A stretch of DNA of 64,000 nucleotides from a virus (Duplodnaviria; Heunggongvirae; Uroviricota; Caudoviricetes), in IMG/VR virus record IMGVR_UViG_3300008267_000033, positions 64,001 through 128,000 of that record; one strand, 5' to 3'. Positions within the stretch are counted from its first letter, which is position 1; every line of letters starts with the position of its first letter. A program made the translations under genes and the position numbers. Below are positions 14,361-41,383 of the stretch, piece by piece. The notes below the pieces were generated by a model. It saw nothing but the letters and a program-made list of their open reading frames with translations, made no database searches and was not told the DNA's origin.

Positions 14361-16530
14361 GTGATCGGTTGAGTGATTCGTTCAGGCCTTGAATCACACG
14401 TTGTATTTGTTTGAGTTTTAGATAGTTCTGTTCAGCGTCACGGGCTGCATAGTAGGCCTGTCCGTCTGCACGTTCGTAGTTGGGATCTCTATTGAGTTCG
14501 GCTCTACGTACCAGTTCATCAATGTTGGGGTACTTTGCTGTCAAGTCACGTTGCATTTTTTCAGCATCTTGTGCAGGTGGTGTGTATGGTTGGCGTCTAG
14601 CATCTGCACTGGCCAGGCCTTTGGTTCTGTTGGCAATGGTTCGATCGGCAGCAGCGACTTTTGTAGGATCATCACGGTCAAAGAATCGGTTGGTCTGAGC
14701 CATGGCCCGACTCATCATGGCTTTTTTACCATAGTCGCCTAGGCTGACTTCTGACACACCTTGTTTTCGCGAGTCGACATACGCTTTGTATTCTTTTTGT
14801 GCTGCTTGATGCACTGTATGATTTGTAGTGAAATCTTTATACTTGTCGCCTTGCGTCAGTACCCATGTGGCAAAGTCAAACCACTCGACCCCGGTATCAT
14901 TGTTTGCCTCTGCCACACCTTGCTCCGCAGTGACCACAGGTTTGCCACTTTTTCCTGTGTTGGCACCAAGTCCAGACACTTGGCCTTTGGTACCACGGCC
15001 ACCGGCTGCACCAATGTGTGCGGAACCTTGCCAACGTTCGCCTTTGCGTGGTTTGGCTGGTTTGAGTCGTTGTACTTGGCCACCACGTGCTAGGAATGCT
15101 GCCACAGCGTCATCGTCTTCCGCCATGCCTTGCTCTTTTTTGACAACAAAAACTATGTTTTGAATTCCAGTATTGGGGTCAGTGTATGTGCTCTTGAATA
15201 CTTTGCCGCCGTGTTGTTTAGCGTGATCAAATGCTTCTCGCTTGTTGTCAAATCTATTGGCAGGCGGACTGATCATTGGACTGGCTTCCTCTGCCAGGGA
15301 ACCTTTTGCTGCAATCTTTTGAGTTTCTGGTCCAACTTTGGCATAGCTATTCTTTGGATCATAGATACCAACTTTTCCACTTCTATCAGTGGCAATAGTA
15401 GCACCGTTGATCATTTTTTGTGTTGCAAATCTAGCTTCAGGATAACGATTCAATACTGATTCTTTCCATCTTTCTAATGACACAGCCATCAGTGGTTTTT
15501 GTGAGTTCATTGCCGAAGGTCTGGATGATGCCACTGCCCCGGCATTTTGTGGTACTGATTGTGGTCTGGGTTTTCCTGGCATGTAAACAGATCCGGACGT
15601 TACACCACCGGTTCGTTGTATGCCAGTGGCCTGTTCAGGATCTCTTACTATACTAACTTTTTCTTTAATAGCCAGTGGTTTGTTGGGTTTTGGCTCAACG
15701 TCAACTATATCATCGTTATTATTAGGCTTTGGTGGCTTAGTAGGAGCAGATAATTGCTGACTGGTGTGCCATTGATTTGCTTGTGGTCTAATTGGCTCGC
15801 CTGTATCTGGGTCAAAATTGGCCTGTGGGCTAGGTTGGGGTGCTGGTTCATCCTGTAGTTCTGATTCAGGTTTAGCTTTTTCTCTTTCTGCTTGACGCAT
15901 ATTGAATTCAGCTTTCATCTTATTCAATTCATGTGTGTCAGCATGAAGAATCTTTTCCATGTCTTGTTGGTGACCCATCTGTAACTTACGCAGATCATGC
16001 AAGTATTCTTTTTCAATCTTGGCTATTTCATGTTTGCGTTCAGCTTCGGTGTTGGCTTTTTCCCAAGCAAATCGTTCCATCTCCATTTTTTCTTTATGAA
16101 GTTGTTGACGCTGTGCTTCAAAGTCTTGTTTGGCCTGACGTTGTAATCCTCTTCGGTCAGATGCACTCATAGTTAATTCATCTGCCTGATCTAATTCTTT
16201 TACTTTTGCGGCATGTAGTATATCGTCAAGCTCTTCGCTACTCCAGCCATCCCATGTATACTGGCCGTGCCCTTCTTTATCTGACCACTTGTATTGACGA
16301 AACGGCGTCTTAAATCCGGCTTGTTGCAATGCTTTAGTTTTTTGGTTTGCATCCATCTCATCCCAACCCTGCAAGGCAGAATGGTTGACACCTTCCGCTA
16401 CACCTTGTTCATCAAGCCCGCGAGATTTGCGCCACCTGCGAATACTTTTGCCCTGATCACGTTTGGATCCAAGATCGCCAATGGCCTCCGCCGCGAATTT
16501 TTTGTTGTTGAATAAATCGTTGATGATCAT
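14350..16530 (-). CDS. Modular putative internal head polyprotein with four QGVAE-type junctions
   Basis: EQGVAEG, EQGMAED, EQGVAEA and KQGVSEV separate unrelated 40-370-aa modules; N-terminus MIINDLF. Confidence 0.6.
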   Translation of the reverse strand: MIINDLFNNKKFAAEAIGDLGSKRDQGKSIRRWRKSRGLDEQGVAEGVNHSALQGWDEMDANQKTKALQQAGFKTPFRQYKWSDKEGHGQYTWDGWSSEELDDILHAAKVKELDQADELTMSASDRRGLQRQAKQDFEAQRQQLHKEKMEMERFAWEKANTEAERKHEIAKIEKEYLHDLRKLQMGHQQDMEKILHADTHELNKMKAEFNMRQAEREKAKPESELQDEPAPQPSPQANFDPDTGEPIRPQANQWHTSQQLSAPTKPPKPNNNDDIVDVEPKPNKPLAIKEKVSIVRDPEQATGIQRTGGVTSGSVYMPGKPRPQSVPQNAGAVASSRPSAMNSQKPLMAVSLERWKESVLNRYPEARFATQKMINGATIATDRSGKVGIYDPKNSYAKVGPETQKIAAKGSLAEEASPMISPPANRFDNKREAFDHAKQHGGKVFKSTYTDPNTGIQNIVFVVKKEQGMAEDDDAVAAFLARGGQVQRLKPAKPRKGERWQGSAHIGAAGGRGTKGQVSGLGANTGKSGKPVVTAEQGVAEANNDTGVEWFDFATWVLTQGDKYKDFTTNHTVHQAAQKEYKAYVDSRKQGVSEVSLGDYGKKAMMSRAMAQTNRFFDRDDPTKVAAADRTIANRTKGLASADARRQPYTPPAQDAEKMQRDLTAKYPNIDELVRRAELNRDPNYERADGQAYYAARDAEQNYLKLKQIQRVIQGLNESLNRSHLP
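14748..16410 (-). repeat. GVAE junction motif, 4 copies (14748-14766, 14907-14925, 15117-15135, 16392-16410)
   Basis: AAACAAGGTGTGTCAGAAG, GAGCAAGGTGTGGCAGAGG, GAGCAAGGCATGGCGGAAG, GAACAAGGTGTAGCGGAAG. Confidence 0.85.
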
Positions 16531-16532
16531 GA

Positions 16533-17204
16533 TTATCGTTCTTCTATGTAATCTGTGTTGCCGTTGCGTTGCTGTGCTTGACGACGAGCCTGATACAACT
16601 TCACTGCTATACCGGCATCATCCAGGCTGCGAAAGCGACTGGGCAAGGTCTTGCCGCCACGACGCAGTTCATATCCTTGGTCATCATTGCCACAACATTC
16701 CAAGGCCACACCGTCAGCCATTTCAAATGTGGCTACAGGTGCTTGTGGTGCGCCAAGTTTGTTGTCCACACCTAGTTCAGCAGCATGTGCCACTTCAGTA
16801 TCGCCCGGGTCACTGGGTCCTTGCATGGCAGCAGGATCTGTATCTATTTCTTCTTCAACTTCGCCACGTGCCACAGCGTCCTGTGCTTTGTCTTTCAAGT
16901 CACGGTCAACACGCACCTTCTTTTCCAAGCGATCCAGGTATTGTGTAAGGTCTTTCTTGACCTTGCTGATCATGTCTTCTTCAATCTCGGCCATTGCTTC
17001 TTCAAGAGCAGTGCGACGAGGCTCTGCACTATCGCCCACCATGTAGCCGTCCATGGGATGAGCAGGATCTTTTTTTGCACCCAGCGCACGAATATGCTTG
17101 GGCTTGAACAGTGCAGGCAACTGAGGTACTTTTTGTTGTGCAGGGCTCAACCGGCCCTCCACTGTGGCCAGCCGATCTAGGATTGATCTAATGTCGTTGC
17201 TCAT
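16533..17204 (-). CDS. Hypothetical acidic late/virion protein
   Basis: Start moved to ATG 17204 (MSNDIRSILDRL), which overlaps the dps stop. Confidence 0.65.
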   Translation of the reverse strand: MSNDIRSILDRLATVEGRLSPAQQKVPQLPALFKPKHIRALGAKKDPAHPMDGYMVGDSAEPRRTALEEAMAEIEEDMISKVKKDLTQYLDRLEKKVRVDRDLKDKAQDAVARGEVEEEIDTDPAAMQGPSDPGDTEVAHAAELGVDNKLGAPQAPVATFEMADGVALECCGNDDQGYELRRGGKTLPSRFRSLDDAGIAVKLYQARRQAQQRNGNTDYIEER

Positions 17205-17641
17205 GCTCGTTGGTCTTTCAAATAACTGGTCAACTGCCATTTGTATTTGCCATGCTGGCTGAGTCGTTGAGACAAAAAGTCTGCAATGCCCTGTTGATTT
17301 TCTTCTGTGGCCGACTCGAAACACATGTTCAGCAGGTCTATCATTTGATCATTGTTGGCCAGCAGTTCTTCAAGCATGAGTCGGGCACGTGGTACCTTGG
17401 TCTGCCCCATGATCTGTGTTAGTTCACTGTAGCGTTCCAAGCTGCCGGGCGCATATTCGCCCAGATATCTGATGTATTCGGCAGTGGGATCCAAGGCCGA
17501 AAACGCATCTTCATAAATTTTTTGCAGGAACTTGTGCAGCTCGCCAAAGTCAGGACCTTCCACATTCCAGTGAAAATTGTGTGCCTTGAGATAGTAGGCA
17601 AAATTACTGGCTAGTAGAATTTTTAAACTGTCCGCGAGCAT
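17201..17641 (-). CDS. dps: Dps family DNA-protection/mini-ferritin protein
   Basis: HNFHWNVEGPDFGELHKFLQKIYE...LDPTAEYIRYLG ferroxidase signature; C-terminal HGKYKWQL. Confidence 0.92.
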   Translation of the reverse strand: MLADSLKILLASNFAYYLKAHNFHWNVEGPDFGELHKFLQKIYEDAFSALDPTAEYIRYLGEYAPGSLERYSELTQIMGQTKVPRARLMLEELLANNDQMIDLLNMCFESATEENQQGIADFLSQRLSQHGKYKWQLTSYLKDQRA

Positions 17642-17822
17642 TATTATTCCTCTTGTATTCTTTAGGGGTATTCGGGGTTGGATCCGAATCTGTTGTATAT
17701 TTACCTGACAACAAGGAACCGCCAGATCTTGACACCATGCCCAAAGGTTGACTCACAGTGGCAATACCACCAGCACAACTGGCGCCTACTGATGCTGATT
17801 CTGCTATTTCATGCCAACGCAT
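17604..17822 (-). CDS. Small putative internal head protein
   Basis: N-terminus MRWHEIAES fits the shared M-x3-E-I-x-E leader. Confidence 0.55.
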   Translation of the reverse strand: MRWHEIAESASVGASCAGGIATVSQPLGMVSRSGGSLLSGKYTTDSDPTPNTPKEYKRNNNARGQFKNSTSQ

Positions 17823-18114
17823 CTGATATCTCCAAACTTGGGTTGCCTTGATAATTTATTATCTGTCCTGCCCCAGTGACAACTCTGTAATTGCGCACTT
17901 TAATGCAGCCATTAGTTTCATCCACAGTTTCAAACACAATGGGATATATGCCGGGTTGAGCCTGTATCTGAAACGACTCTTCAAGATAGCAGTTGTTCCA
18001 TATCCAGGTGCGTTCTGCAAACAGTTCATTGTTTACATAAGCACGATAACGAAATGGCTGCACTTGCACCTCGGCAGTGACATCGCACTCTACTTGAACA
18101 AAATATTTTTGCAT
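17809..18114 (-). CDS. Hypothetical beta-rich late protein
   Basis: ATG 18114 (MQKYFVQV) lies 4 nt after TAAATA (18119-18124). Confidence 0.65.
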
Positions 18115-18150: not shown

Positions 18151-19200
18151 ATGTTGAAACTCAGTGAAGTACGCAAGGTGCAAGTTGAATTGACCACACG
18201 TTGCAATGCCAGATGCCCCATGTGTATGAGAAACTATCGTGGCCTGGACTATAATTCAGGATATCCTGTCACCGAACTTACTCTGCAACAATTCCAACAT
18301 ATTTTTACACCTGAGTTTTGTCAGCAGCTCACAGGTGTTGAACCCATAATTGATGGGTTTCAAAAAAAGTATTTTGGACAAGCTGGGGTCAGTTTCAATG
18401 GCAATCTTGGTGATTTTGCAAGTGCTCGGGATGCCGTGGAAATAGTCGAGTACTTGACGCAACATCAGGTGCCAGTACATATCAATACCAATGGCAGCCT
18501 ACGCACACCAGATTGGTGGAGTAGACTGGCCCAGCCCGGTGTTACTGTGGGATTTGCACTGGATGGCATGGCAGACACACATCACCTGTACAGACAGGAT
18601 ACGGACTGGCACAAAGTTATTGCCAATGCACAAGCGTTTATTGACGCTGGTGGACAGGCATGGTGGCGATTTGTTCCGTTTGATCACAATCGTCATCAAG
18701 AAGATCAGTGCCGACAATTGGCAGCAGACCTGGGATTTGTAAAATTTGAAAACATCTATGACGGCAGAGACTCAGGACCTGTGTTTACCAGAACAGGGGA
18801 ATACAGTCACAGAATTGGCCAAGACTCGGGCCCACCAGATCACCAACCGCAGGTTGAAGATTTGTTGGCCAATCATGTCACATGGTTTGATTCGCGCACT
18901 ATTAAGTCTCACAAAGACGTGTCAGATTTAAATTTACGTTGCATACACAAAATCAATCGAGAAATATACATAGCTGCAGATGGTTCAGTATATCCCTGTT
19001 GCTATCTGGGATTCTACCCTGAAACCATGACCCACGCTGGCAACAGCCAAACAAAAGAATTGGTGCAGGAAAACAATGCACTCGAATATGACTTGGCACA
19101 TTGCTTGGAATGGTTTGATCGTGTGGAACGGACCTGGGCAAAAGACAGCATTGCCGACGGCAGACTGTATCAATGTGTCAACAGTTGCTCAATCACCTAA
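18151..19200 (+). CDS. Radical SAM protein with twitch/SPASM-like C-terminus
   Basis: [30 protein letters not shown]; C-terminal C...[14 protein letters not shown]...CVNSC; start moved to ATG 18151. Confidence 0.85.
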
Positions 19201-19207
19201 GGAAAAT

Positions 19208-20092
19208 ATGACTTCAGCAAGAATTTTATACCTAGCACGATATCGTGTGCCACATGCCATCATGAGTTTACAACCTGAGTTTGCCAACAATCTCATTGGC
19301 ATAGATCGTACTTGTATTGCCAGCCCTGTGCCACAGGAAGAACTGTGGCCTGTGTTTGAAAAGTACGGCATTGATACCACCAGGTTAGACTACGCACCTG
19401 ATTCGGACATCTACAGAATCTATCCTGAAGTCAACAACTGGGTATTTGAAGGTGACTACCGAACATACTGGCTGCGCCAGCAGGCCATCAAGTTTGCGTT
19501 CTTAGACTATCTCAACTATGACTTGATGATCATGCACGACTGTGATTGTTTGCTAATCAAACCCTATGAACCTATCAAAGACGGTGTACTAAACTTCCAA
19601 GTGTTGGAGAATGAACGTCACAGTTGGGGTTACTATGAAAGCATCAAGAACGGTCTAGGGTTTGACCGACTTACACCGCACTGTTTTATTAGTGAAAATG
19701 TGCCGGTGCTCAAACAAGACTTCACGGACCTTGTGAAGTTCCTGGAGGAAAAACATCAGAAGAAATGGTTGGATGCCATGATTGATTCATGTCCACCCGA
19801 AGCCACTGTGCCGCCCTGGGGCAACGGCGAGCTCATACGCTGGTTCAGTGAATATGAATTCATTGGTAACTGGATCATGAGTCGCAGACCCATTACCATG
19901 GAATTCCAACGCAGATATCACTACGACAACATGGAAAAGATTGGCGACTTTGATCCTGCATACCACACTGCTGTGTGCGATGCTGTGCCGGACCTGAGAC
20001 TAAGTTTACAAATGGACTGGGACCAAAAAGAAGTTGTAAACTTTGATTACTACATGAACAAGATACGTGAAACTCTTGCACGCCAGTCTTAA
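19208..20092 (+). CDS. GT-A-like protein, DUF6492-like (paralog 1)
   Basis: WLRQQAIKF...MIMHDCD (DxD) and FSEYEFIG; similar to 22434..23276; start ATG 19208. Confidence 0.55.
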   Translation: MTSARILYLARYRVPHAIMSLQPEFANNLIGIDRTCIASPVPQEELWPVFEKYGIDTTRLDYAPDSDIYRIYPEVNNWVFEGDYRTYWLRQQAIKFAFLDYLNYDLMIMHDCDCLLIKPYEPIKDGVLNFQVLENERHSWGYYESIKNGLGFDRLTPHCFISENVPVLKQDFTDLVKFLEEKHQKKWLDAMIDSCPPEATVPPWGNGELIRWFSEYEFIGNWIMSRRPITMEFQRRYHYDNMEKIGDFDPAYHTAVCDAVPDLRLSLQMDWDQKEVVNFDYYMNKIRETLARQS

Positions 20093-21128
20093 AGTATTCT
20101 CTCCTGGCTACCAGGCCACTGAGTGGGGCTTTGGTCACGATCAAATTGTGGACATGGCAACAGCCCTGGCACAACCTCATAAAATAGCAGTGATGCCAGT
20201 GTTCTACAGCCTGCCCAACAAGCATGAATACAACACAGAATACATGCAGTTGCCCTTGCACAAGTTTGACTTGGTGTTGTTTACAGATATTGAGTGGCAT
20301 TCACAAGCAGAACTTGTTGCTTGGATAGAAACCACAGGTGTAGTAAATTGGCTGTTGCACACATCCGGGGTATGGTTGGATGAACCCCAACATCCCCGAG
20401 TGATCTACAGACCAGCATGGAGTTTTAACTTGTTGCGTTGGAATCTGCCACGTGAAGATTTTCCTTCCAACCGTGCCTATGCATTTGAGTGCTTGCTGGG
20501 TGCTAGACGTGAGCACAGAGATTTTGTAATGTTAGGACTGCAACAGTCAGGGTGTTTGGATCAAGGTATTGTGACCTACAGAGATTTATTTGTAGGCCAC
20601 TGGATTGATTCAACACCTGAACGTGTGGCTCAACTGTTCACAGATACAAAACTACAGTATCCGTACGTCAGCGCCAATCTTGATCCTGCGTGGGAAGTCA
20701 AACAAAACATGGACAACTCTGTCAGTGGTCTAGTGCCTTGGGAAATCTACAATAGAACATGGTTTTCAGTAGTGTGTGAAACCCTGGGCCAAGGCCGCAC
20801 ATTTTTGTCAGCAGAAAAAACAGCCAAGTGTTTTCAGGCTCGTAGACTGTTTGTGGTGTTTGCCATACAGGGTTTCTTGCAACAATATCGAGACTGGGGA
20901 TTTGAAACTTTCGGCGATGTCATAGACGAGTCGTATGATACAGAGCCAGATGATGTTCGACGTTGGGGTCGAGCATTTGAACAAGTGCAATGGTTGTGTG
21001 AACAAGATTTGTCTGCACTGTTGCAAAAACTAAAACCTAGACTGGACCACAATCACAACAGACTGTATGAGTTTGAACGAGAAAAAACTCAGGAACTACA
21101 AAATTTTGTTGTGAGTTACTTGAAGTGA
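20067..21128 (+). CDS. Glycosyltransferase-like protein (paralog 3)
   Basis: WFSVVCET...LSAEKTAK...LFVVFA...GFETFGDVIDESYD. Confidence 0.5.
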   Translation: MKLLHASLKVFSPGYQATEWGFGHDQIVDMATALAQPHKIAVMPVFYSLPNKHEYNTEYMQLPLHKFDLVLFTDIEWHSQAELVAWIETTGVVNWLLHTSGVWLDEPQHPRVIYRPAWSFNLLRWNLPREDFPSNRAYAFECLLGARREHRDFVMLGLQQSGCLDQGIVTYRDLFVGHWIDSTPERVAQLFTDTKLQYPYVSANLDPAWEVKQNMDNSVSGLVPWEIYNRTWFSVVCETLGQGRTFLSAEKTAKCFQARRLFVVFAIQGFLQQYRDWGFETFGDVIDESYDTEPDDVRRWGRAFEQVQWLCEQDLSALLQKLKPRLDHNHNRLYEFEREKTQELQNFVVSYLK

Positions 21129-21925
21129 TTTAACCAAGTTTGGTAGAAGTTTTTGGCAATGATCTTTTGTCCTGCAGGGCCAGAATGATAGCCAGGATCT
21201 TCACCAGTGAATGGATTGTTGCCGCATATGGCCTGTGGAGATCGAGCAGAATCCAAGTTGATGTAATGGTCAGGCACAATACTGGGGAATGCCTCACGCC
21301 ATTGTGTTTGGTTGTTGGGATCAAAAGGCCACAGCAAGTTAGGGCAAACAATAAATTTGATGTCATCTAAATACATCATTGTAATACCATCTCTCATGAT
21401 CCATTCATCACACTGTTTTTTCCAAGCGTTGTCGTAGATACTATCAATCCAGTGGCGCACACCTGTCTGTGCTTGACGAGTAATGCGTCCCTGTCTATAA
21501 GGATGATCAAAGTTTTCAGCAAGGGTAAAGATAGTTTCGCAAATCATGTTTGATGGCTCTGTACCATAGTTGACATTGCGGATGCCATCCTCTCTGCAAT
21601 AACCATTACCTAGTTTTCTATTTTGCAAATGTTGTTCCAACGGGGGATTCTCTCCAGAACTGGGTTTTTGATTCCAGTTGTAAGGCACTGAGTCAGCCGG
21701 TATTTCCATTCTGTCCCAGAACGTGGGCATGATCACAGCAAAGTCCGGCCGCTGTCGGCGTATTTCATCTATCTGTATTCTAATGCCGCCATTGCTACAA
21801 CCTTGACGTGCTAGGTTAATCAACTCCCAATCACCCAGTTGCTGAGCCAGCAGTTCACTCCAGGCAGTACCTGGCAATGTTTTTGATACTGCTGAAAAAC
21901 TGCAGCCTGCTACCATTAATTTCAT
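21116..21925 (-). CDS. SGNH/GDSL-like hydrolase (paralog 2)
   Basis: LMVAGCSFS, NLARQGCSN, C-terminal DPGYH. Confidence 0.55.
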   Translation of the reverse strand: MKLMVAGCSFSAVSKTLPGTAWSELLAQQLGDWELINLARQGCSNGGIRIQIDEIRRQRPDFAVIMPTFWDRMEIPADSVPYNWNQKPSSGENPPLEQHLQNRKLGNGYCREDGIRNVNYGTEPSNMICETIFTLAENFDHPYRQGRITRQAQTGVRHWIDSIYDNAWKKQCDEWIMRDGITMMYLDDIKFIVCPNLLWPFDPNNQTQWREAFPSIVPDHYINLDSARSPQAICGNNPFTGEDPGYHSGPAGQKIIAKNFYQTWLNHFK

Positions 21926-23309: not shown

Positions 23310-23666
23310 TTATTTTCCTGCCACTGCCAAGCCAGCGCCTTTGTTGAAGCTGGGGCTCCATGAATTGGCTTGACGCAGGCCTCGACGTTTTGACCAGTCA
23401 TATCCTGCACGATGTCCTGAACAGTCTTTGGTGCATTCAGATCCCAGGAAGCTGAGTTCTCGCAGTTGATCACGGGTCCACTTGTCAGGAATCACACCGT
23501 GTTTGGCCACAAACTTGTCATGCAATTGCTTGCCAGTAATGCCGTGGTCACGAGCAATGGTTTGCATCATGTGGTCAATTGCACTGTAGCTTTTGGGATC
23601 ATCAAGATCTTTTTCCAAGTCTTCTACTGCATCTTCTTTCAAATGTACAAACTCTTGTGCTCTCAT
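23310..23666 (-). CDS. Putative internal head protein
   Basis: MRAQEF leader; C-terminal Cys module ECTKDCSGHRAGY after an LRE site. Confidence 0.55.
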   Translation of the reverse strand: MRAQEFVHLKEDAVEDLEKDLDDPKSYSAIDHMMQTIARDHGITGKQLHDKFVAKHGVIPDKWTRDQLRELSFLGSECTKDCSGHRAGYDWSKRRGLRQANSWSPSFNKGAGLAVAGK

Positions 23667-25039
23667 TTTTTAGGTTGAACTGCTGTGGGCATGTTGCGAT
23701 ACTGTCGCCGGGCAGGATCGTACACAGTCTTCATGGGACCAAGTCCGGCCAGTTTTTTTACTCTGGCAACCATGTCATCGTATTCATCATCATAGTCAAC
23801 TTCTTTTGGGTCACGATAGTCAGCACCCTTTTGTTGCTCGCCTTCCTCTACACCTGGTTGTTTTTGATCTTGCTGTTGTGCCCATTGAGCAATTTTTCCA
23901 AAAAGTGTGTCAGGAACACCAGAATCCTTAGCAGCCTTTGGATCTCTAATATCAACTACGTTGATGGTTCTATCGGCCAATGGGCCGCTTGCTTGAATAG
24001 GGCCACCTGATGCAATTGTTGCGGCACCTGTATATTTTTTCTCTGGATCATTTAGTCTTTGATCTAATCCCAATTGTTTAGCGGCTGCAGGAGCCAAGGG
24101 TTTTATATCAATAAATGATGCTGAATTACTTGCAGTAGATAAATCTTGGTTGCGACGCCAATTGGCTGCGACGTATGTACCATTGGCCAATCTAACATAA
24201 GTGGTCACTGGTGCAAACATATCTAATTCATTTAAGTTATCTTCCGCCACATCTTGTTCTCTCACACTACTGCGGAAAAGTCTGGCATCATTTGCATCGT
24301 GTTTGCCGCGTTCTAATCCTTTTTCCCACTCGTCGTATTTGCGAGCTTCTCGTGTGGCACTGTAAGGATTGTCCTTGATGGTCTTGCGTTCTTGGTAGGC
24401 TCTACGGCCCAGTTCGTATGCCACACCCACACCGGCCAGTTCATACTCTTCCGCCACACCTTGCTCTCTGACGCTAAGTTTATCAGCAGGATTGCCACCA
24501 CCAAACATATTGCCGAAAGCATCACGGGCACGTTGTTGAGTTTGTTTTTGCTGCTCTTTGCGATCTGCGGTCTTTTGTTTATTAGTGCCCTGTTTGATAG
24601 TTGTCATCATTTTGTCAAAAGGTTTATCACCGGTAGCCTCCGCCACACCTTGTTTCAAATAGCCCCATTCGTCCTTGCTTGTACAGTCACGCTTGGCAAT
24701 GTCTCTACCTTTAAGTTGATCTTCTCTGCGCTTGTCGCCGGCGGCACGTAGTTTAACAACCTTGCCATCATCTTTATTAGCAAGACGACTTGCGGTATTG
24801 ACCATGGCATTGCTTTTGTCTTCCGCCACGCTTTCTGATTTGTTGCCATAGTTGCCAGCACCTTTTTTGCGGCACTGTACCAAGCGTCCGGATGCATAGG
24901 CCGACGGCCATACCTTGGCACTTGCTTTGACTTTGTGATAGCAGGCGTCTTTCTTTTCAGCCAGGATCAAATCACTGAAACTGATGCCACCGCATTCGGG
25001 GCACTGTTGTGGGGCTTCAAAAAGTTCGTCTATGATCAT
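23663..25039 (-). CDS. Modular putative internal head polyprotein with five GVAE-type junctions
   Basis: MIIDELFEA leader; ESVAED, KQGVAEA, EQGVAEE, EQDVAED and QPGVEEG delimit modules; basic module KDACYHKVK...AYASGRLVQCRKKG. Confidence 0.65.
   Translation of the reverse strand: MIIDELFEAPQQCPECGGISFSDLILAEKKDACYHKVKASAKVWPSAYASGRLVQCRKKGAGNYGNKSESVAEDKSNAMVNTASRLANKDDGKVVKLRAAGDKRREDQLKGRDIAKRDCTSKDEWGYLKQGVAEATGDKPFDKMMTTIKQGTNKQKTADRKEQQKQTQQRARDAFGNMFGGGNPADKLSVREQGVAEEYELAGVGVAYELGRRAYQERKTIKDNPYSATREARKYDEWEKGLERGKHDANDARLFRSSVREQDVAEDNLNELDMFAPVTTYVRLANGTYVAANWRRNQDLSTASNSASFIDIKPLAPAAAKQLGLDQRLNDPEKKYTGAATIASGGPIQASGPLADRTINVVDIRDPKAAKDSGVPDTLFGKIAQWAQQQDQKQPGVEEGEQQKGADYRDPKEVDYDDEYDDMVARVKKLAGLGPMKTVYDPARRQYRNMPTAVQPKK
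23842..24838 (-). repeat. GVAE junction motif, 5 copies (23842-23860, 24241-24259, 24448-24466, 24637-24655, 24820-24838)
   Basis: For example GAGCAAGGTGTGGCGGAAG, AAACAAGGTGTGGCGGAGG, GAACAAGATGTGGCGGAAG. Confidence 0.85.
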
Positions 25040-25389
25040 TTCTTTTTAGTGGCCACGTTGATGGCCTTTCCTGTACGGTTGGGGTTGGGATCTTGTCTGC
25101 GTTTTCTTGCGGCTGCTGATGCGCGACCTTTTTTGCCCAGTGCATTGGCCTTGGCCCGGGGCAGGCACTTGGGCTTGCCTTCTGATTCTGATCCTCTGGC
25201 ACAGTCTCCACGGATCTTGCCGTCAGGACCAAAGCGTACCCATTTTTCTTTGAACCAATTGCGGAGATTTTCTTCTAACTCAGCTTCGCGCACAGGCACA
25301 CAGTTGGGCACCTGACGACCACCTTTGTTTTTCATACCTGCTTGGCGATAACCAGTCCAACAGGCTTCAAGAATTTCTTTGTAAGTCAT
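25036..25389 (-). CDS. Basic putative internal head protein with T4 CTS-like leader
   Basis: MTYKEILEA resembles T4 IPIII MKTYQEFIAE; Lys/Arg-rich modules CWTGY...VPNCV and LRNWFKEKW; TAAATA 7 nt upstream. Confidence 0.65.
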   Translation of the reverse strand: MTYKEILEACWTGYRQAGMKNKGGRQVPNCVPVREAELEENLRNWFKEKWVRFGPDGKIRGDCARGSESEGKPKCLPRAKANALGKKGRASAAARKRRQDPNPNRTGKAINVATKKK

Positions 25390-26048
25390 GATTGTTTATT
25401 TATTGGTTTATCTAGATCATATGTCACAGTGTCCGAATCACCCAGGCGCCATTTGGGGTTGGTTTCAACCACCCACTTTTTGGTGGCCACTTTGAAGTCT
25501 GGGAACAGCATTTCTCGGGGATTGCTGGCAGCATCTAAAAAGATACATCTGTTGTTGGGCTGTGCGGCATACTGTCCGTTGTCCAGTTCAATGAAGTTAA
25601 AGCTCTTGTGATCTTCGGGCCATTCTGAATAAGTGGTATCTATGATGTTCATGTCAGGTGCGGCATTGTCCACTGTGAACATGTAGTTGCCCTGATATGA
25701 TTCTCGGTTCTTGGCATAAAATTTACAGCTGAGATTGCGTAGGAATGCTTTCTGAATCACAGCAATGTCATAACTGAAGCAGTCCCAGATCTGCAGGGTG
25801 TCCAAGGCCAGAAACTGGTCAGGTTCTAGGTTGTCTTTACGACTCACATAAGCGTGTAGTGGCAGCTTGTCATACAGTGCGCCATAGCGTGGCAAGTAGG
25901 CTTCTATGCGAAATGCTTGGCTGCGTAGGCTTTTGATTGACACCCATATGCAGGGTTCGTACTCACCGTGACCTTGTTCAAAATCATACAAAAATTCTCT
26001 ACGAACAAAACAATGTATGGGGGGTAAATTTGCTACTAAAAAACTCAT
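25386..26048 (-). CDS. Conserved T4-like phage hypothetical protein
   Basis: MSFLVANLPP...GALYDKLPLHA...QIWDCFSY...GQYAAQPNNR; family recognised from large myophages. Confidence 0.65.
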   Translation of the reverse strand: MSFLVANLPPIHCFVRREFLYDFEQGHGEYEPCIWVSIKSLRSQAFRIEAYLPRYGALYDKLPLHAYVSRKDNLEPDQFLALDTLQIWDCFSYDIAVIQKAFLRNLSCKFYAKNRESYQGNYMFTVDNAAPDMNIIDTTYSEWPEDHKSFNFIELDNGQYAAQPNNRCIFLDAASNPREMLFPDFKVATKKWVVETNPKWRLGDSDTVTYDLDKPINKQS

Positions 26049-26049
26049 A

Positions 26050-27213
26050 TCAGTGAAACATTAAAAATTGGTTGGCCACGTCCAGTCGGCTTGCACCCAA
26101 ATCGCCATGACCTGCAGGGAACACCACAACGTTCCATTTGGGAGCAGGCCCTTCGGGTATGCGATTCATTTCGTCATATGTGATCACAGTGTTGGGATCA
26201 ATTTTGTACTTGGCACCCAGATCCTGGCGGAACTGTTGCCAGGCGTCTGCGCTTTTTACCTGTGTGCGTCCTTTTTCGTCTTTCACATACTTGCCCTTGG
26301 CATCGGTCACAAACAACTCACGGAACATGTCTTTGGGCAGGGTCACAGCGTCTTTCACATGCCGGCCGGCATCTCGTTGTAGTTGAACTGTTTTGACTTC
26401 GCGACTTTGTGCACCTGGTGAAAACTGTTTGACCACGTTGTCCGGCGTGTCAGGGTCTGTAACTATTTGCCCCATCTTGGTGTAGAAGTAAAATTTCACA
26501 TCAGGATTGTTCCGGGCCACATCCATCATCAAGTTGTAGTATTCTTTTGAGAAGAAGTCACCAGCGTCATGTATGCGCACCAGTAGTTTGATGCCATTCT
26601 TGCTGGCCAATGCCGCGGCTTTTTTGACTTCGCTGTCGAACTTCTCCATGTAGTCTGACGGATGATTAACCAGGAAGTTTAGTGCCTGTGCCGCACTCAT
26701 TGAGCTGGCTGGGAACATCACATAGCCGCCTTTTCTGGCATAGCAGTAGGTCTGGCATTCGCCAGCACCGGGGCAGGTGATCACTTCCACAAACTCACCA
26801 GTTTCTTCATCCACCACAATGCCACTCAGGGCTGGCAAGGTCAAGTCATATGTGATGGCGCCTTCCTCTTTGCTCTTGGCCATTTTGGCATTGGTGCCCA
26901 GGATCTGTCTTGGCGGCTGCATGATCTGACTTTTTAAATCGTCTAGGTCCCACTCAGTACCACCGTCATCTCGAGTGATGGCCTTGATATTGCTGCCGTG
27001 TATGATGGGCTTGAATCGGTCAGCCTTGGTCTTGGTACCAGTTTTGATACGAGTTGCATAGTCTTGCATGTCTTGGGCGGACATAGACCGTTGTGGTGCA
27101 TCCAGTTTGAGTGCTTCGTCTGTGGCACCTTGTTCCACATTCAATACTTTGGCAGGAAATCCACCCAGGGTTCGGCCACGTTCAGCAGCTTCTACAATTT
27201 GTCTTATTCTCAT
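26050..27213 (-). CDS. Gp88-like Cys-cluster protein with head-targeting-like leader
   Basis: TCPGAGECQTYCYA, VRIHDAGDFFS, FYFYTK; N-terminus MRIRQIVEA. Confidence 0.6.
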   Translation of the reverse strand: MRIRQIVEAAERGRTLGGFPAKVLNVEQGATDEALKLDAPQRSMSAQDMQDYATRIKTGTKTKADRFKPIIHGSNIKAITRDDGGTEWDLDDLKSQIMQPPRQILGTNAKMAKSKEEGAITYDLTLPALSGIVVDEETGEFVEVITCPGAGECQTYCYARKGGYVMFPASSMSAAQALNFLVNHPSDYMEKFDSEVKKAAALASKNGIKLLVRIHDAGDFFSKEYYNLMMDVARNNPDVKFYFYTKMGQIVTDPDTPDNVVKQFSPGAQSREVKTVQLQRDAGRHVKDAVTLPKDMFRELFVTDAKGKYVKDEKGRTQVKSADAWQQFRQDLGAKYKIDPNTVITYDEMNRIPEGPAPKWNVVVFPAGHGDLGASRLDVANQFLMFH

Positions 27214-30200
27214 TTTCTTTTGGCCTTTGCTCTTCCGGCTTTCATGTTGGCCAGCCAGTGGGCCATGCGTTGCTTTTCACCTGACGAATTCTTTGCTGTC
27301 TTGCGCAAACTGCTGACTGACGCTTTGGTATTTACTCCTGAGCGTTTGGCTAGACCTTTGCGCCCAGGATTCTTGCCATCGGCAAAGTTTTCCGTGACAC
27401 CTTGCTCGTGTAGTCCAAATGCGTCACGAATGATATTTAACAACTCGCTTACACTTGCGTCTGTAGTGGGCAATACGTCTTTGAAAGCATCATCCAAATA
27501 AGGGTCGCCGTCTTCTACAGTACCTAACGCATAGCTAAACATGCCATTACCTTGATTGGCGATCAACATTATGTACCATTGATCATCTGTTTCTTGTCCT
27601 TTGGCAGTAAACAAGAAAGTATCTTCTCCCTCACGTTTACCGTTCCAACCAGTAGCTTTCATTGCACTGTTAATTTTGTTAACAACTTCTGGCCATGATA
27701 AAACATTTCCCAGTGCTGCTTCTGTTACACTTTTGTTGGCATTTCTTAATATCTCAATGACTTTCTCACCGGCTGTTTTTATTGCTTGATCAAGTCCCAT
27801 CTCCTTGGCTTGTTTCTCAGTTTTACCCAAGAAAGGTCGGAGCATACTTTTAGCAACATCTAACCTGGCCTTGACCTCTGCAGGATCTCCGTAACGTATT
27901 TGTTGTCGTTGTCGTTCTCTATCATAGTCTCCGTTGTACATGATGGCATCAGCCAACTCTTGTATATCGTATTGTCTGGCTTTTACTTTTGGATTACGAT
28001 TGACAAACATCTTGTGTTGTCGTATAATCCTTGGATCTAGTACTACACCTTGTGTTGGTTCATTATAAGCAATCCAGCCCGCACCGGGATCATATACACT
28101 GGTGAATCCCAAATCACGCAATACTTTGTTCCAACGAACGATATTGGTTTCATCGTTTGTGCCTAGTCTACTCAAGCAGTCGTAAATCATCCAGTATGGC
28201 GTATCATCATACAATGAATCTGGTTCATCTAATACTTGTTGTATTATTTTTTCAGGGCAGTATTGACTCAGGGCTTGACGTAATTGAGCAGGATCGACTT
28301 GGGTTTGCTGAGTCATTTCATTCGAACGGTCGTATTGAAACAACTGCATATAGGGCATGTTATCTCCCCATGGCAGTGGTTGATAACGGTTGACCATCTG
28401 TATAAAGTATTCCAATGGATAAAAGTAAATACCCTTGGGAGTGTCTTCACTGATGCCCACTTGCGGATTGATCCCCAACTTGGGCTCAGCAGTCATGCTA
28501 ACACCCCAGTTTTCTTGGTCTCTGATATCTTCAGCAAATGCAGCCAGCTCATATTTACCCATCCCATATTTTTTATTCTGATCTGGGTTTTTACGTGCTT
28601 CCGCCATGCCTTGCTTGTTGGACCAAAGCAATTGGCCTTCTTCTTGTGCTATGAGGTGTATGTTGTATCCTGGATGGGTGGGTTGTATGTCATGGTTGTC
28701 AAAGTGAGAAGATAGTTTTTGTAATATTCTTACCACGCCAAGATACTGATCACCCACAAGATCATCAGGTACCACTACCAAGATATCAGTGTCACTGTTT
28801 TTACGATGTTTTCCTGTAGCACGACTGCCATGGAACCAAATTTCTTGTGCTATGGGCATGACTTTGAGTATGGCATCAACCACTGGCTGGCCTGGTTGTT
28901 TGCCCTCCGCCACGCCTTCTTTGACCACAGCAGGCACAGTTTCATCGCCCAGCAAGTTCAACAAAAATGTTCTGTGATGGCCGTCTTGCAAGTGATACGA
29001 GCCATCAGGCAGGGCAGACACTGTGATGGGATTCTTTTGTACAAATTGTCTTAGACGTTGTTGTGCCGCAGGGTCAGCTTTCAATGCATCCACCAGTTGT
29101 CTCATGCTCATGTCTGGTGACACTTGCATGCCAGCAGCGTGGGTCAACACATCTGCTGCTTGCTCAATGTTCACCCCTTGTGTGCCAATGGCACCGTTGG
29201 CTCTGCGCACATTAGCAATGGGAAAATTCTCAATGTCTTCACGCAGGTTCACAGTCTTCATCAACAGTCCAGGCTCGCCATTGCGACCTGTGTTCAAGGC
29301 CAGTTTGTTGGCTTCTTTGCCAGTCTGTCCAGGTTTGATATCCACACTCAGAGCCATGGCATATTGTGGCATGGCTGCTTCACGCTTGTTCTTGGGAATG
29401 TACCCTGAGGCGCCTTCTTCCAATGAATCACGGGCAAAATGTTCAGGATGAGAGTTGGCCCAGTCACGCATGATGATGCCTGCTCTGGCGTTGGCATCAT
29501 TTTCCCACCGACTGCCAGTTTCGCCTGCGTCATCTGGTAACTGACCATGTTGTTGATTTTGTGAGCAGTGAACTAATTCATGTGCCACTGTGCGCAACAC
29601 GTCCATGACATGGCGATTGGGCATGCTTACATTTAGTGTGTGTGATTCTGGATCGTAACGTCCAAAACTTTGATTGCGTTCGCTCCACTCAGGATCAGTG
29701 TGCAAATGAATTTCAGGTGCAGGATCTATGCCCAGCTCTGTTGTGACGTGTTTAATAAAGTCCTGCACAATGTTGTCATCAGATTCAGAGTCTTCCAAGA
29801 AAGACTTGGTACTGGCAGCAACACCATCCGACGTGCTGTAAGGCTGACTCTGCATGCCTTCACCGAAGCCGTAACGAAACCGTTGTCGAGGTGCTTCACG
29901 CAGACTCAGTTTGCGATCTTGTGCGGCTCTACGTGCGTCCCACAGCAGTTTTATACAACCACTATTGCGCAAGATTTTAAACGCAAGATTTTCACAGCCA
30001 AACTCGCCTTGTTGTTCAAGTCCTGCCTGCCGCATGGCCTTGATTTTGTCGGCCAAGGTGGCCATTTTAGATTGATCTCCTGAACGCACAGCATCGTGAA
30101 TACGTGCGTCCAAGTCTGCAACTTTGTCACGCACACACGCATCATCTACCCTGGCACGTTTGCGTTGGGGTATGGAGATCCAGCTATTGTGTTGCACTGA

Positions 30201-38324: not shown

Positions 38325-39132
38325 TTTGCTCAGACTCACGACGACGCTGTTCCAAGAACTCTTGGTATTCTTGCAATCGTCGTTGACGTTCAAACCACTC
38401 TTGTTTTTGCACTGCTTCTAGTGTGTCTCTGTATCTGGTGTCAGTCACACCGCCCCAACGGCGTTGTGCATCATACGCAATGTACATGAACATGCCCATC
38501 ACCGCAAACATCACCACCACAGCGCCAATGCCCAGGGCAATTTCAAACTGATATTTCTGCATGCGTTGGCGTTTGCGGTGGGCTTTTTCAAGTTCATATG
38601 ACATGAGCACTTTTTGTTCTTTGCCCAGGTCCTTGGTCATGCTTTCCACTTCGGTGAACAGCGCACCCAGTTCAGGTGGGCTTTGGTAGATCATGAGTTC
38701 GCGCAGTTCCTTGCCCATGGCCTCCAGTTGCTTTTTCATCAGCACACGTTTCAGCGCACGTTTTGCTAGACTGTCACCACCTGAATACACTTCAGTTTTT
38801 GATCGTTTTTCTTCGTCTTCCAGCACTGCTAGACATTTGAAATAGTTGTCGTAGTAGGCGCCCAGGGCATCGCCAATCTCTGTGTAGATATTGGTGTTTT
38901 CCTCACTGCGTTTGTTTAGGTCTCGTACCCGGGTTTTTTCTTCGTTGAGTTGTTTGACCGCAGCATCAGGCACTGGCCGGCCATCGTACTTTTTGTGAAA
39001 CTGATCGTCAAGATCTCGAAGTACGCCTTTAACATCGCCCGCGGCACTTTTGATGTCCTTGTACAGTTGACATCCTTTTTTCACGGCTGCAACAGCCGTG
39101 TTGGCCAAGGCAAATAGTGTTAGTGGATCCAT
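38308..39132 (-). CDS. Coiled-coil membrane protein
   Basis: MDPLTLFALA..., one C-terminal TM; TAAATA at 39168-39173. Confidence 0.65.
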   Translation of the reverse strand: MDPLTLFALANTAVAAVKKGCQLYKDIKSAAGDVKGVLRDLDDQFHKKYDGRPVPDAAVKQLNEEKTRVRDLNKRSEENTNIYTEIGDALGAYYDNYFKCLAVLEDEEKRSKTEVYSGGDSLAKRALKRVLMKKQLEAMGKELRELMIYQSPPELGALFTEVESMTKDLGKEQKVLMSYELEKAHRKRQRMQKYQFEIALGIGAVVVMFAVMGMFMYIAYDAQRRWGGVTDTRYRDTLEAVQKQEWFERQRRLQEYQEFLEQRRRESEQNESSR

Positions 39133-39202
39133 TGTTATTGCTCATGCCACTACGCTGGTGGCTTGAGTATTTAACAGATCCTTGTGCGAGATCTAGTGGG
39201 TG

Positions 39203-39742
39203 TTACACAAACGGTATCCACAGCCAAATACCTTGGCTCAACAGCACTGTGCCAATCACAGCCACCACTTCGCTGATGCGATACATGGTGTTGTTCACAC
39301 TCAAAATGCTGGCACTCAACAGCACAATAGCCAGTTGAAATGCCAGGGACGCAAAGGTCAACCATGGTGTGTGGCGTGTGGCTTCATCACGTGCGGCTTC
39401 GTGGGCCTGTGCCTTTTGCAATAGTTCACGCTTGCCTTCCGCCTTCACAGGGTCTGATTCGTAACGTGCAATCTTGGCCTCCAGTAGTGCTCTGCGCTGG
39501 GGATCACGTGTTTCTTCCAGTTGTCCTTCAGCAATGCTTTGTTTGATGCTTTTGCTTTGATAGAACGCATAGGTGTCTGTGGCTTTGAGCATGTTCTTTA
39601 GCACAGCACCTGAGTAGTTGTTTGAAAAGTATGTGGTCACGGCCATGAACAGGGCCATGATCACAATCACAAGTCCGGCTTTGTCTTTGATTGCTGCTTC
39701 ACGTTCTGAACGTGATAAGGGTTTTGTTTCTGCTTCTGCCAT
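39203..39742 (-). CDS. DUF4337-like membrane protein
   Basis: TM-coil-2TM topology, YAFYQSKSIK; start 39742 after GGAG. Confidence 0.65.
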   Translation of the reverse strand: MAEAETKPLSRSEREAAIKDKAGLVIVIMALFMAVTTYFSNNYSGAVLKNMLKATDTYAFYQSKSIKQSIAEGQLEETRDPQRRALLEAKIARYESDPVKAEGKRELLQKAQAHEAARDEATRHTPWLTFASLAFQLAIVLLSASILSVNNTMYRISEVVAVIGTVLLSQGIWLWIPFV

Positions 39743-39743
39743 G

Positions 39744-40358
39744 TCATGCTCCCATAATGTGTAAGGCGTGTTCGTAATGCTTGATACGATCTTCAAGACC
39801 AATGTAACCACCATTGATCTTTTTAGTCATCTTCTTGATGTCGCCGGCATCTGCTTCCACATTCAAGTTGTTGCTTTCCCAGAACCAGCAGGCTGATTGT
39901 GCGGCACCTTCAAATGTACCTAGGTATTCTGCGGCTTCTTCAGCGGAGATTTCCAAGCTGGCAGCAAAGTTTTCATAGTTGCTCTTGCCGGTGAGTTGAA
40001 TCAGTCCACGACCGCAGTAGCGATATCCGTCACCTGAGTGTTCGTCACCATTGCCCATGCGACTTGCATACACTCGGTTGGCAATCATTGCAGGCTTCTT
40101 GGCATAGGCCTGTGCTAGTTCTGCTGTGGGGAAATATTTGCCAAAAATCTTTTGTAGGCTTTCTGCCTTGTAATTAAGATTTTCTTTGATAAATCTAAAA
40201 TTTCCTGACTCATGTGCGCACTGTGCAATAAAAGCAGCAATGCGACGAGGTGTGTTGATCTCATAATCTGGCAGTAACTGGTCCAAGGCTTCCAACCAGT
40301 GTTCAGCATGGGGTATACCATGTACCATTTGTTTTAGTTGTCCGAGTGTTAGTTCCAT
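39744..40358 (-). CDS. Glycoside hydrolase family 19 endolysin
   Basis: FIAQCAHESG, YCGRGLIQLTGKSNY, TKKINGG. Confidence 0.9.
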   Translation of the reverse strand: MELTLGQLKQMVHGIPHAEHWLEALDQLLPDYEINTPRRIAAFIAQCAHESGNFRFIKENLNYKAESLQKIFGKYFPTAELAQAYAKKPAMIANRVYASRMGNGDEHSGDGYRYCGRGLIQLTGKSNYENFAASLEISAEEAAEYLGTFEGAAQSACWFWESNNLNVEADAGDIKKMTKKINGGYIGLEDRIKHYEHALHIMGA

Positions 40359-40367
40359 CTTGGCTCC

Positions 40368-40655
40368 TTATTTTATGTTGTTGAATATTTGTTGTTGTTT
40401 TTGATACCATTCAATCCAGGCATCTGTTTTGACAGCACACTCATAGTAGGTGCCGTAGTTCACAGTCACAGTCCTTGATATGTCACTTAGACGGGCATCA
40501 TCAGGAATTTTTTGCAGTTGTGGACAGGCCGTCATGGCCACGTTGCCCGGTGCTTCGGGGAACCGTGCTGTTACAGGTACTACTGTACTGCATCCAGTGG
40601 CAAGGAATGCCAGTATCACAAACACCACTAGAAAGAACAATTTAATCGAATGCAT
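40368..40655 (-). CDS. Outer-membrane lipoprotein o-spanin (Rz1-like)
   Basis: Lipoprotein signal ending LATG-C; extra Cys; next to the endolysin; TGATG overlap with the upstream gene. Confidence 0.7.
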   Translation of the reverse strand: MHSIKLFFLVVFVILAFLATGCSTVVPVTARFPEAPGNVAMTACPQLQKIPDDARLSDISRTVTVNYGTYYECAVKTDAWIEWYQKQQQIFNNIK

Positions 40656-41383
40656 CAGCAGTTCCAACGACGTCGTGCTTTGCATATGGCTTTGTCAGGA
40701 GTCTTGGCACAACTGATGCTGTGCATTTTCATTTGTCCACGACTGCGGCTGCAATAACTCTTTCTACGCTTGGATGCCTTGCCACCTTTTTTGAGTTTGC
40801 CAGGTTTGGTGGTTACAGCAGTTTTTAGTTTTGAGCCAGGATTTTCTCTGCGGTAAGCATTCACAGCCTTTTGACTCATGCCATCTGTCTTGTCACGTTT
40901 GTTGGCTTTTTGCCAGTCTTCCATCACACCTTGCTGACTGTACATATCCATCAGTTGTCGAATATAGAAATTATAAAAACCACGACGGCCGTTGTATTCT
41001 CTGTCTCCAAGCACAGTCTTTAGTGCGGCTACAGCATCATTTACTTCCGAACCACGCATTATTTTTAGTGCATCCGTCACAAGTGAATCAACTTGTTGTG
41101 TGTCTTCCGCCATGTCTTGTGATTCCATGATGGGCTCTGAAGTCACAGCAAAAGCATACAGTTCATCTTCGGTGAGTGTTTCCAAATCTTCCCAGATCAC
41201 TTCAGCATCCACACCGTTGTGTTGGGCCAGACGTTCAATGATGGATTCGATAAGATCAAACTCTTCCTCAAGTTCTACACTTTCGTTCTTGGGCTTCTTG
41301 CCAGCTTTTTTCATTGCAATGGCCGTTGCAGCCTGTTGTGGATGTGCCGACTTGGCTTCTGCTAAGATTTCATTAATTTTCAT
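40655..41383 (-). CDS. Putative internal head protein with two GVAE-type junctions and a basic C-terminal module (DUF6321-like)
   Basis: MKINEILAE leader; SQDMAED and QQGVMED; GMSQKAVNAYRRENPGSKL...RRKSYCSR...ARRRWNC. Confidence 0.65.
   Translation of the reverse strand: MKINEILAEAKSAHPQQAATAIAMKKAGKKPKNESVELEEEFDLIESIIERLAQHNGVDAEVIWEDLETLTEDELYAFAVTSEPIMESQDMAEDTQQVDSLVTDALKIMRGSEVNDAVAALKTVLGDREYNGRRGFYNFYIRQLMDMYSQQGVMEDWQKANKRDKTDGMSQKAVNAYRRENPGSKLKTAVTTKPGKLKKGGKASKRRKSYCSRSRGQMKMHSISCAKTPDKAICKARRRWNC
40918..41122 (-). repeat. GVAE junction motif, 2 copies (40918-40936, 41104-41122)
   Basis: CAGCAAGGTGTGATGGAAG and TCACAAGACATGGCGGAAG flank one 62-codon acidic module. Confidence 0.8.

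Follow-up and report, generated by a model that had tools for sequence, protein, structure and literature searches.

A silently conserved in-frame junction word borders exchangeable modules in candidate capsid-cargo polyproteins of a lake phage

Introduction

What keeps a short DNA word constant, in a single reading frame and down to its silent bases, where it joins protein modules that are otherwise unrelated? The question is raised by the 64,000-nucleotide (nt) window analyzed here, bases 64001-128000 of the 146-kb IMG/VR phage record IMGVR_UViG_3300008267_000033 (45% G+C, with an estimated completeness of ~42%), in which four minus-strand open reading frames (ORFs), termed genes A-D (726, 458, 1129 and 242 amino acids), carry repeated copies of a 19-mer encoding a junction of the G-V-A-E type. 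The family-B DNA polymerase of the contig shares ~50% identity with its counterparts in Sinorhizobium phage Phosso and Agrobacterium phage Atu_ph07 and 96%, 80% and 63% with those of uncultured contigs of 110, 349 and 525 kb, and many lake-water metagenomes and metatranscriptomes carry matches to the contig. A preliminary description of the window had assigned the word two jobs, as a prohead-protease site releasing each module and as a DNA site for the exchange of modules. The comparisons described below uphold the DNA exchange role, and the protease-site role gains comparative support only, from an S77 protease in relatives, from the leaders and from the alignment of leader and junction Glu. 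On balance it appears probable that the products of genes A-D are cargo polyproteins directed to the head and cut after Glu, and that the word also supplies the homology through which general recombination exchanges modules in frame.

Results

The junction word is fixed in frame and at silent positions

The 14 copies are minus-strand 19-mers, all read in frame as x-(Q/E/P)-(G/D/S)-(V/M)-(A/T/S/E/M)-E, and nine of them fit the 19-mer at ≤3 mismatches compared with 0 expected from 100 shuffles. Across the whole 146-kb contig a strict peptide pattern gives 11 matches and an 18-mer at ≤4 mismatches gives 12, all within genes A-D and in the sense orientation. Both the coordinates of the copies and these scans thus agree with the earlier claim of 14 in-frame copies in only four genes. 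The codon usage described at the same time is also found, with Ala encoded by GCG in 9 of 10 copies, the Thr copy using ACG and a codon starting with G coming next in 13 of 14; genome-wide, GCG accounts for 8% of Ala codons and ACG for 7% of Thr codons. The synonymous sites of the word stay fixed in relatives and are not randomized.

Searches of IMG/VR proteins with genes A and B gave 85 loci with long ORFs containing (E/K/Q)QGVAE or xEGVAE junctions in a varying module order. This protein-ascertained set provides 74 unique G(V/M)AE sites, for which the rest of the same ORFs serves as the background. Ala is GCG at 65 of the 74 sites (88% compared with 6%, p ~5e-65), Val is GTG at 56 of 65 (background 24%), Gly is GGT at 64 of 74 (background 46%), and the base following the Glu is G in 97% (background 36%). 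The residue preceding the Gly is Q, E or K, with an -AA codon every time. The 15-nt core AAGGTGTGGCGGAAG is asymmetric and purine-rich, and the information content falls sharply beyond positions -5 to +12. The core joins shuffled modules in >100 uncultured phage contigs; the exact 16-mer is present in >120 further IMG/VR stretches, with 110 of 112 cases being QGVAE in a long ORF, and five related records have 4-7 copies each of the exact word, the controls giving none. No other linker word recurs in this way: distinct contexts number 194 for QGVAE and ~10 for the unrelated 5-mer that ranks next. A GGC-ATG variant of the word behaves as a linked pair and recurs in unrelated contexts, which is consistent with the word being copied whole. 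Searches of GenBank phage genomes by megablast/blastn gave no real match to the word in context (one match at chance level) and no match to genes B-C, and protein matches in cultured phages cover single modules only.

Module borders coincide with the word

As the preliminary description had proposed, the positions at which a module is present in one sequence and absent or replaced in another coincide with the motif, both among related contigs and in lake metagenomes. Among 1123 internal ends of DNA homology in 202 loci, 384 lie ≤10 nt from a copy compared with 25 expected. Separate sets of partner contigs, with alignments stopping at the copies, are found at the DNA level for five of the six gene B modules and three of the three gene D modules, and each segment between copies matches different partner contigs, in agreement with the earlier statement that the modules are unrelated. 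Junction pairs taken from different loci and sharing one flank number 227, and in 215 of these the other flank is unrelated; followed position by position, identity is lost just past the core in left-shared pairs and gained there in right-shared pairs. Silent-codon identity in the word is ~0.86 at any divergence of the shared flank, whereas the flanks drop to 0.51. These one-sided pairs were used for the silent-site test in place of diverged pairs keeping both neighbors, of which there is only one, indicating that junction contexts turn over faster than sequences diverge.

Assembled lake-metagenome contigs show the same borders. Contigs from two runs belonging to different studies join position 24832 to 28917, a skip of 4084 nt that equals the exact spacing of a gene B and a gene C copy and creates an in-frame gene B/gene C chimera. 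In a second joint, 27406 is connected to 28598 in lake contigs, both positions being edges of gene C copies, and the summed depth between them is ~5-fold below that of the two sides. Divergence from the window, with loose ends at copies, is found in DNA and RNA contigs at 24251, 24448, 24639 and 27406. The word kept at silent sites, the homology ends at its borders and the near-unique module pairs together show that the junction has a role at the level of DNA.

The individual copies (with the residue following the junction Glu given after the hyphen) are arranged as follows. Gene A (14350..16530, minus strand) has five modules (residues 1-46, 47-471, 472-541, 542-594 and 595-726) that match differing contigs by DNA homology, namely L001-L005, L141, L099/L150 and L014/L017, and its N terminus reads MIINDLF...AAE in translation. 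Homology to L001 spans the upstream gene up to junction A1 (EQGVAE-G, 16392-16410), and segment pairs (high-scoring segment pairs, HSPs) to L099, L150 and L141 begin or stop at A2 (EQGMAE-D, a GGC ATG variant, 15117-15135). The L141 HSP begins at 14924 within A3 (EQGVAE-A, 14907-14925), the sole GCA copy, and the L014 HSP stops at 14765 within A4 (KQGVSE-V, 14748-14766), the Ser variant. Residues 473-489 of gene A give a weak SutA-RBD-like match under the Pfam cut-off.

Gene B (23663..25039, minus strand) has six modules (residues 1-73, 74-134, 135-197, 198-266, 267-399 and 400-458), the first composed of a Zn-ribbon and KVWPSAYASG domain (phrog_727, 3477, 38880) that is found as a stand-alone protein in cyanophages. 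More than 10 HSPs begin at 24815-24822, at B1 (SESVAE-D, 24820-24838), in which the 5' half is degenerate and which contains position 24832 of the joint to 28917. Loose ends are placed at 24639 in B2 (KQGVAE-A, 24637-24655; run X11), at 24448 in B3 (EQGVAE-E, 24448-24466; RNA run X15), the perfect 19-mer, and at 24251 in B4 (EQDVAE-D, 24241-24259; run X15). HSPs stop at 23839-23862 around B5 (QPGVEE-G, 23842-23860), the most degenerate copy, and contig L012 has an extra module inserted at this position after QPGVAE. One metatranscriptome contig of run X15 is missing 3 nt inside B3 (24463-24467) and is probably a variant from a related phage.

Gene C (27210..30599, minus strand) is divided by the motif into four blocks (residues 1-565, 566-667, 668-1070 and 1071-1129). 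Its N-terminal domain is nucleotidyltransferase (NTase)-like (phrog_36119) and occurs as a stand-alone protein in Maribacter and cyanophage genomes; gene C also has an HExxH motif at about residue 340, a ParB-like stretch and a Minimal NTase domain (PF01909, residues 585-626). Junction C1 (KEGVAE-G, 28904-28922) is the partner side of the 24832-to-28917 joint, and C2 (KQGMAE-A, a GGC ATG variant, 28598-28616) is one side of the 27406-to-28598 joint of runs X12 and X14. Junction C3 (EQGVTE-N, 27389-27407), which has the ACG codon and is the only copy without a following G, coincides with joints and loose ends at 27406 and with the ends, at 27392-27406, of HSPs to L001, L014, L122 and L199. Gene D (40655..41383, minus strand) has three modules (residues 1-93, 94-155 and 156-242, the last being DUF6321), and HSPs begin or stop at 41100-41123 around D1 (SQDMAE-D, 41104-41122) and at 40918-40939 around D2 (QQGVME-D, 40918-40936).

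Probable exchange by general recombination

The preliminary description likened the arrangement to an integron, in which case a dedicated site-specific recombinase would act on the word and modules would be excised and inserted as circles. The precise breakpoints and short fixed sequence do recall the core sites of recombinases. However, the two recombinase families searched, tyrosine (PF00589) and serine (PF00239), gave no match in the contig or in two complete relatives, with control genomes all matching PF00589, and the word is asymmetric, with no inverted repeat, dyad symmetry or hairpin at any copy. The integron analogy is therefore not sustained, and we regard a dedicated recombinase as very improbable. 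Looking elsewhere for a recombinase, as had been suggested, gave a RecA/UvsX-type gene in the complete relatives and neither an integrase nor a resolvase. With this gene present, tyrosine and serine recombinases not found, no dyad symmetry, and a contig that contains no copy of the word in antisense or in trans at ≤4 mismatches, homologous exchange between copies is favored. By analogy with the promoter-early stem-loop (PeSL) cassettes of T4-like phages, general homologous recombination fits better than an integron.

A second alternative is that the frozen sites serve RNA or translation, for example as a ribosome pause formed by the Shine-Dalgarno-like AAGGUG and the rare GCG codon, with shuffling as a by-product. 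The core does hold AGGUG and the rarest Ala codon, the borders of the word are sharp and its frame is fixed, and its conservation is independent of flank divergence. The contig has no partner or antisense copy and the word no hairpin, and a pause leaves the obligatory G after the Glu and the near-unique neighbor pairs unexplained; we consider an RNA-level function to be quite unlikely. Two further candidates were rejected. Internal translation initiation at the GTG/ATG of the word is ruled out by an AAGG spacing of 1 nt and by the existence of GTA and GTC variants, and a resemblance to a tRNA 5' half was dropped when the best of the 30 tRNAs of the phage scored a weak 10 of 19. These 30 tRNA genes (ARAGORN) are located at contig bases ~26700-31400, outside the window.

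Candidate capsid-targeting leaders and a proposed head-protease site

Three relatives bearing the word, two of them 97-100% complete and one 74%, encode, arranged as in T4, a gp21-type Peptidase_S77, a scaffold-like protein and a capsid protein of the gp23 type. The DNA polymerases of the complete relatives are 80% and 63% identical to that of this phage, and the third relative gave no polymerase match. The capsid protein of the relatives has L-A/S-E at the T4 gp23 cut position.

The N termini of the polyproteins are similar to a T4 leader. A recurrent leader of the form M-(K/R/I)-x-x-(D/E)-(L/F/I)-(F/I/L)-x-E is present, of which MRAxEFIxE is the commonest version with 62 distinct ORFs in loci L001-L211 (for example, L199, L013 and L036). 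The leader MKTYQEFIAE of T4 IPII/IPIII, read from the T4 record NC_000866, resembles MRAxEFIxE as well as the candidate capsid-targeting sequences of gene B (MIIDELFE, residues 1-8, 25016..25039, minus strand) and gene D (MKINEILAE, residues 1-9, 41357..41383, minus strand). When the window genes are compared with the T4 leader, genes B and D fit, with leader ends of the (I/L)-x-Glu type, and the match is poorer for genes A and C. ORFs that bear the motif have such leaders more often (odds ratio of 5.9). In T4 a 10-residue leader is enough for packaging and is removed by gp21 (PMC9026906; PMC5694885). From their leaders, these phages may encode dozens of capsid-targeted proteins.

Single-module genes adjoining polyproteins are also headed by MRAxEFIxE. 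In the window, a single-module neighbor of gene B (25036..25389, minus strand) has the leader MTYKEILE followed by a CW(T/P)GY module, which in other polyproteins is placed behind a GVAE junction, and a further neighboring gene matching Pfam GP88 (26050..27213, minus strand) has the leader-like start MRIRQIVE.

The strongest of these comparisons concerns modules that follow a junction in one protein and open a stand-alone gene elsewhere: the first residue past the junction Glu aligns 8-9 residues from the stand-alone Met, right after the leader Glu. The final Glu of the gene B leader likewise aligns with the junction Glu that precedes the same Zn-ribbon module in other polyproteins. The aligned positions indicate that leader and junction are interchangeable ways to precede a module, both ending in Glu. 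The silent sites of the leaders vary normally and the next base is G in only 39%, which argues that the frozen bases of the junction are not a protease requirement.

These alignments bear on whether the junctions are cut at all. The word could be an uncut linker within whole multidomain "polyvalent" proteins, with the motif acting as a recombination joint only. Polyvalent phage proteins with 2-15 domains are known, some of them delivered unprocessed (PMC5512222); we infer cleavage here, and folding of single sequences is uninformative on the linkers (AlphaFold of gene B without an alignment has a mean predicted local distance difference test score, pLDDT, of 37.7). Against this, the Glu is invariant and hydrophobic-x-Glu fits T4-type sites, the same modules stand alone directly behind a Glu-ending leader at the aligned position, some modules are stand-alone proteins in cultured phages, and five fixed residues are not needed in a spacer. 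An uncut linker therefore seems unlikely.

Module repertoire and expression signals

A total of 596 segments group into 328 module families, with a median length of 83 residues for internal modules. Few modules are recognizable in 51 related polyproteins, those found being DUF6321, GNAT, dCMP deaminase, LysM, ParB_N, GH19, NTase and one twin-arginine translocation (TAT) signal. Weak RMF-like and SutA-like matches in window genes are all under Pfam cut-offs. TAT-type signals (RRGFL and a hydrophobic stretch) are located directly past the leader Glu in L012 and a few residues past a GVAE junction in L169, and another is present in L003; this placement hints that some released modules go to the periplasm. 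Signal peptides after junctions were rejected as evidence for free N termini, as the 5 TAT-like motifs and 8 hydrophobic stretches show no clear positional bias.

Cutting could alternatively be due to another protease, either the zincin-like HExxH module of gene C or an enzyme of phage or host, acting in the cytoplasm on modules that stay intracellular and unpackaged. Embedded metallopeptidases have been proposed as processors of polyvalent proteins (PMC5512222), gene C has the HExxH module, the genes are situated outside head modules, and a few modules have TAT-type signals soon after a leader or junction. However, HExxH is present in only 6 of 178 polyproteins, near the ~3 expected by chance, and in the window in gene C only, making it too rare for a general processing enzyme. 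A trypsin-like protease was not found on the fragment, and the genes carry T4-like leaders that have no obvious role beyond capsid targeting. Sigma70-like promoters are depleted upstream of these genes (4/238 compared with 131/1293, p 2e-6), which also argues against the cytoplasmic alternative, and we judge it to be improbable.

Scans for sigma70 promoters and terminators around genes A-D gave counts not above those of shuffled sequences. The T4 late promoter TATAAATA has 4 copies in the window, none preceding genes A-D. The copy at 37783-37790, just upstream of a holin-like gene (GTA_holin_3TM, 37318-37764), is the only plausible late promoter in the window. Two perfect sigma70 consensus promoters (TTGACA-17-TATAAT) are found at 28000-28028 (plus strand) and 37089-37061 (minus strand), one being upstream of a DnaJ gene and the other antisense within gene C.

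Other genes of the window include a ClpA/ClpB-type AAA+ protein (751 amino acids, phrog_4871) that adjoins a full DnaJ with J and C-terminal domains (33923-37039); together with a ferritin-like gene (17201-17641) these form a phage-borne chaperone and iron set. In the 525-kb relative G001 a full-length DNA polymerase gene is present twice, once towards each end of the record and in opposite orientation (18719-21430 and 508482-511193), and junction words are also near both ends, which may represent a long inverted terminal duplication or a feature of the assembly.

Discussion

The most probable arrangement, then, is one in which genes A-D are cargo polyproteins of a T4-related giant lake phage, composed of small independent modules behind a short T4-like leader. 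The leader would carry the chain into the prohead core, where a T4-type (S77) head protease would cut after the invariant Glu of each leader and each G-V/M-A-E junction (hydrophobic at P3 and Glu at P1), and the freed modules would presumably be injected along with the DNA. The constant codon phase of the word would mean that a crossover between any two copies gives an in-frame product. General RecA/UvsX-type recombination could produce such crossovers inside one gene, from one gene to another or across co-infecting phages, so that modules may be deleted, duplicated, inserted or swapped with the reading frame intact. Uniformity of the word could be kept by exchange or conversion among copies and by the preferential spread of modules with intact words.

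Several points weigh against this arrangement. Cutting, packaging and injection are all inferred. Peptidase_S77, Gp23 and Trypsin_2 gave no match on the contig, which at ~42% completeness is uninformative, and the link to the protease comes from relatives. The predicted site of the capsid protein itself is L-x-E, and Q-G-V-A-E is, to our knowledge, more specific than any T4-type protease is known to need. The neighbors of genes A-D are chaperone, ferritin and sugar-modifying genes with no head module, and across the loci TATAAATA shows no enrichment ahead of genes that encode polyproteins or carry leaders. At the DNA level, fifteen identical bases are short for RecA-type recombination, and no recombination intermediates or circles were seen in the data, which are assembled contigs. 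The metagenome joints come from assembled contigs placed at 90% similarity, the shorter side spanning 41 nt, and may be standing variants, perhaps in relatives, in place of events in this phage; in the 1191-nt skip from 27406 to 28598 other letters may lie between the edges. Loci L092 onward were found by means of the exact word, and codon counts are unbiased only in the protein-ascertained subset.

The closest known systems each share a part of the arrangement. The T4 internal proteins IPI-III and Alt have a short N-terminal leader ending in hydrophobic-x-Glu with diverse small cargo behind it, their genes are scattered outside the head module, and they belong to the lineage with an S77 protease and gp23-type capsid protein (here seen in relatives). 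They differ in being single proteins with one cut, compared with up to six chained modules in the window and more in relatives, and the internal word here is constant in its DNA where the leaders are not. For T4, packaging and cutting are established, whereas here both are predicted from sequence. In the giant phages phiKZ, 201phi2-1 and SPN3US many head-loaded proteins, among them ejection and inner-body proteins, are cut after Glu (S/A/G-x-E or A-x-E) by a T4-related protease (PMC5694885). However, these proteins lose long propeptides and do not form chains of swappable modules. We know of no report of DNA-level conservation at their cut sites.

The PeSL cassettes of T4-type phages have short repeats bounding differing units, with exchange credited to general recombination (PMC2839356, PMC4122927), and the present word similarly bounds insertions, deletions and replacements between related phages. 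The PeSL elements are intergenic and regulatory, span tens of bases and move whole genes, whereas the word is 15-19 nt, coding and fixed in frame and would move protein modules. No promoter and stem-loop of the PeSL type is present at the word, which is coding in 110 of 112 cases with no hairpin and no promoter enrichment, and PeSL mini-circles have been shown by inverse PCR, whereas the exchange here is known from assembled contigs alone. In integrons (IntI and attC) a short repeated site also flanks mobile units that are gained, lost and reordered; here there is no integrase and no folded dyad-symmetric site, and each unit is a protein module kept in frame, where an integron unit is a promoterless gene.

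Polyvalent proteins (Iyer et al. 2017, PMC5512222) combine many effector-type domains of unrelated kinds in a single chain, for which delivery alongside DNA and processing into units have been proposed. The present polyproteins are similar in this respect (NTase, ParB-like, zincin, GNAT, deaminase and lysozyme-type), and gene C contains at least two unrelated effector-type domains (two NTase-type, HExxH and ParB-like). The embedded zincin-like metallopeptidase that is the usual processor of polyvalent proteins has no regular counterpart here, as HExxH is near chance. No conserved linker or cut-site word is described in PMC5512222, and the present modules are far smaller, most of them belonging to no known family. 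An internal, in-frame junction frozen at the DNA level is described for none of the T4 internal proteins, the PeSL cassettes or the polyvalent proteins. A literature search for phage polyproteins joined in this manner found no paper, and the peptide word gave only alpha-synuclein papers.

The freezing of silent sites, with GCG in 88% of sites compared with 6%, is an unusually clean natural overlap of a protein and a DNA code. If the arrangement proposed here is correct, tailed phages own a polyprotein strategy in which one gene loads many small swappable proteins that the head protease frees, and the DNA of the cut site doubles as a frame-keeping crossover point that links virion maturation with genome mosaicism. 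This would explain the fast turnover of hundreds of small orphan proteins in giant phages. The word and leader would then flag candidate injected effectors (anti-defense or host takeover) in metagenomes without homology, and the design suggests a way of loading multiprotein cargo into T4-type capsids. More tentatively, and as a possibility that we place on the doubtful side, the word may be a self-maintaining dual-coded joint by which modules with intact copies on both sides spread between co-infecting giant phages through in-frame crossovers, this mobility itself keeping the copies uniform; with the word also serving as the head-protease site, each new combination would automatically be packaged, cut and injected. 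Such a joint would provide these phages with a combinatorial and quickly reshuffled stock of ready-made effectors, a kind of protein evolution resembling exon shuffling in a bacterial virus.

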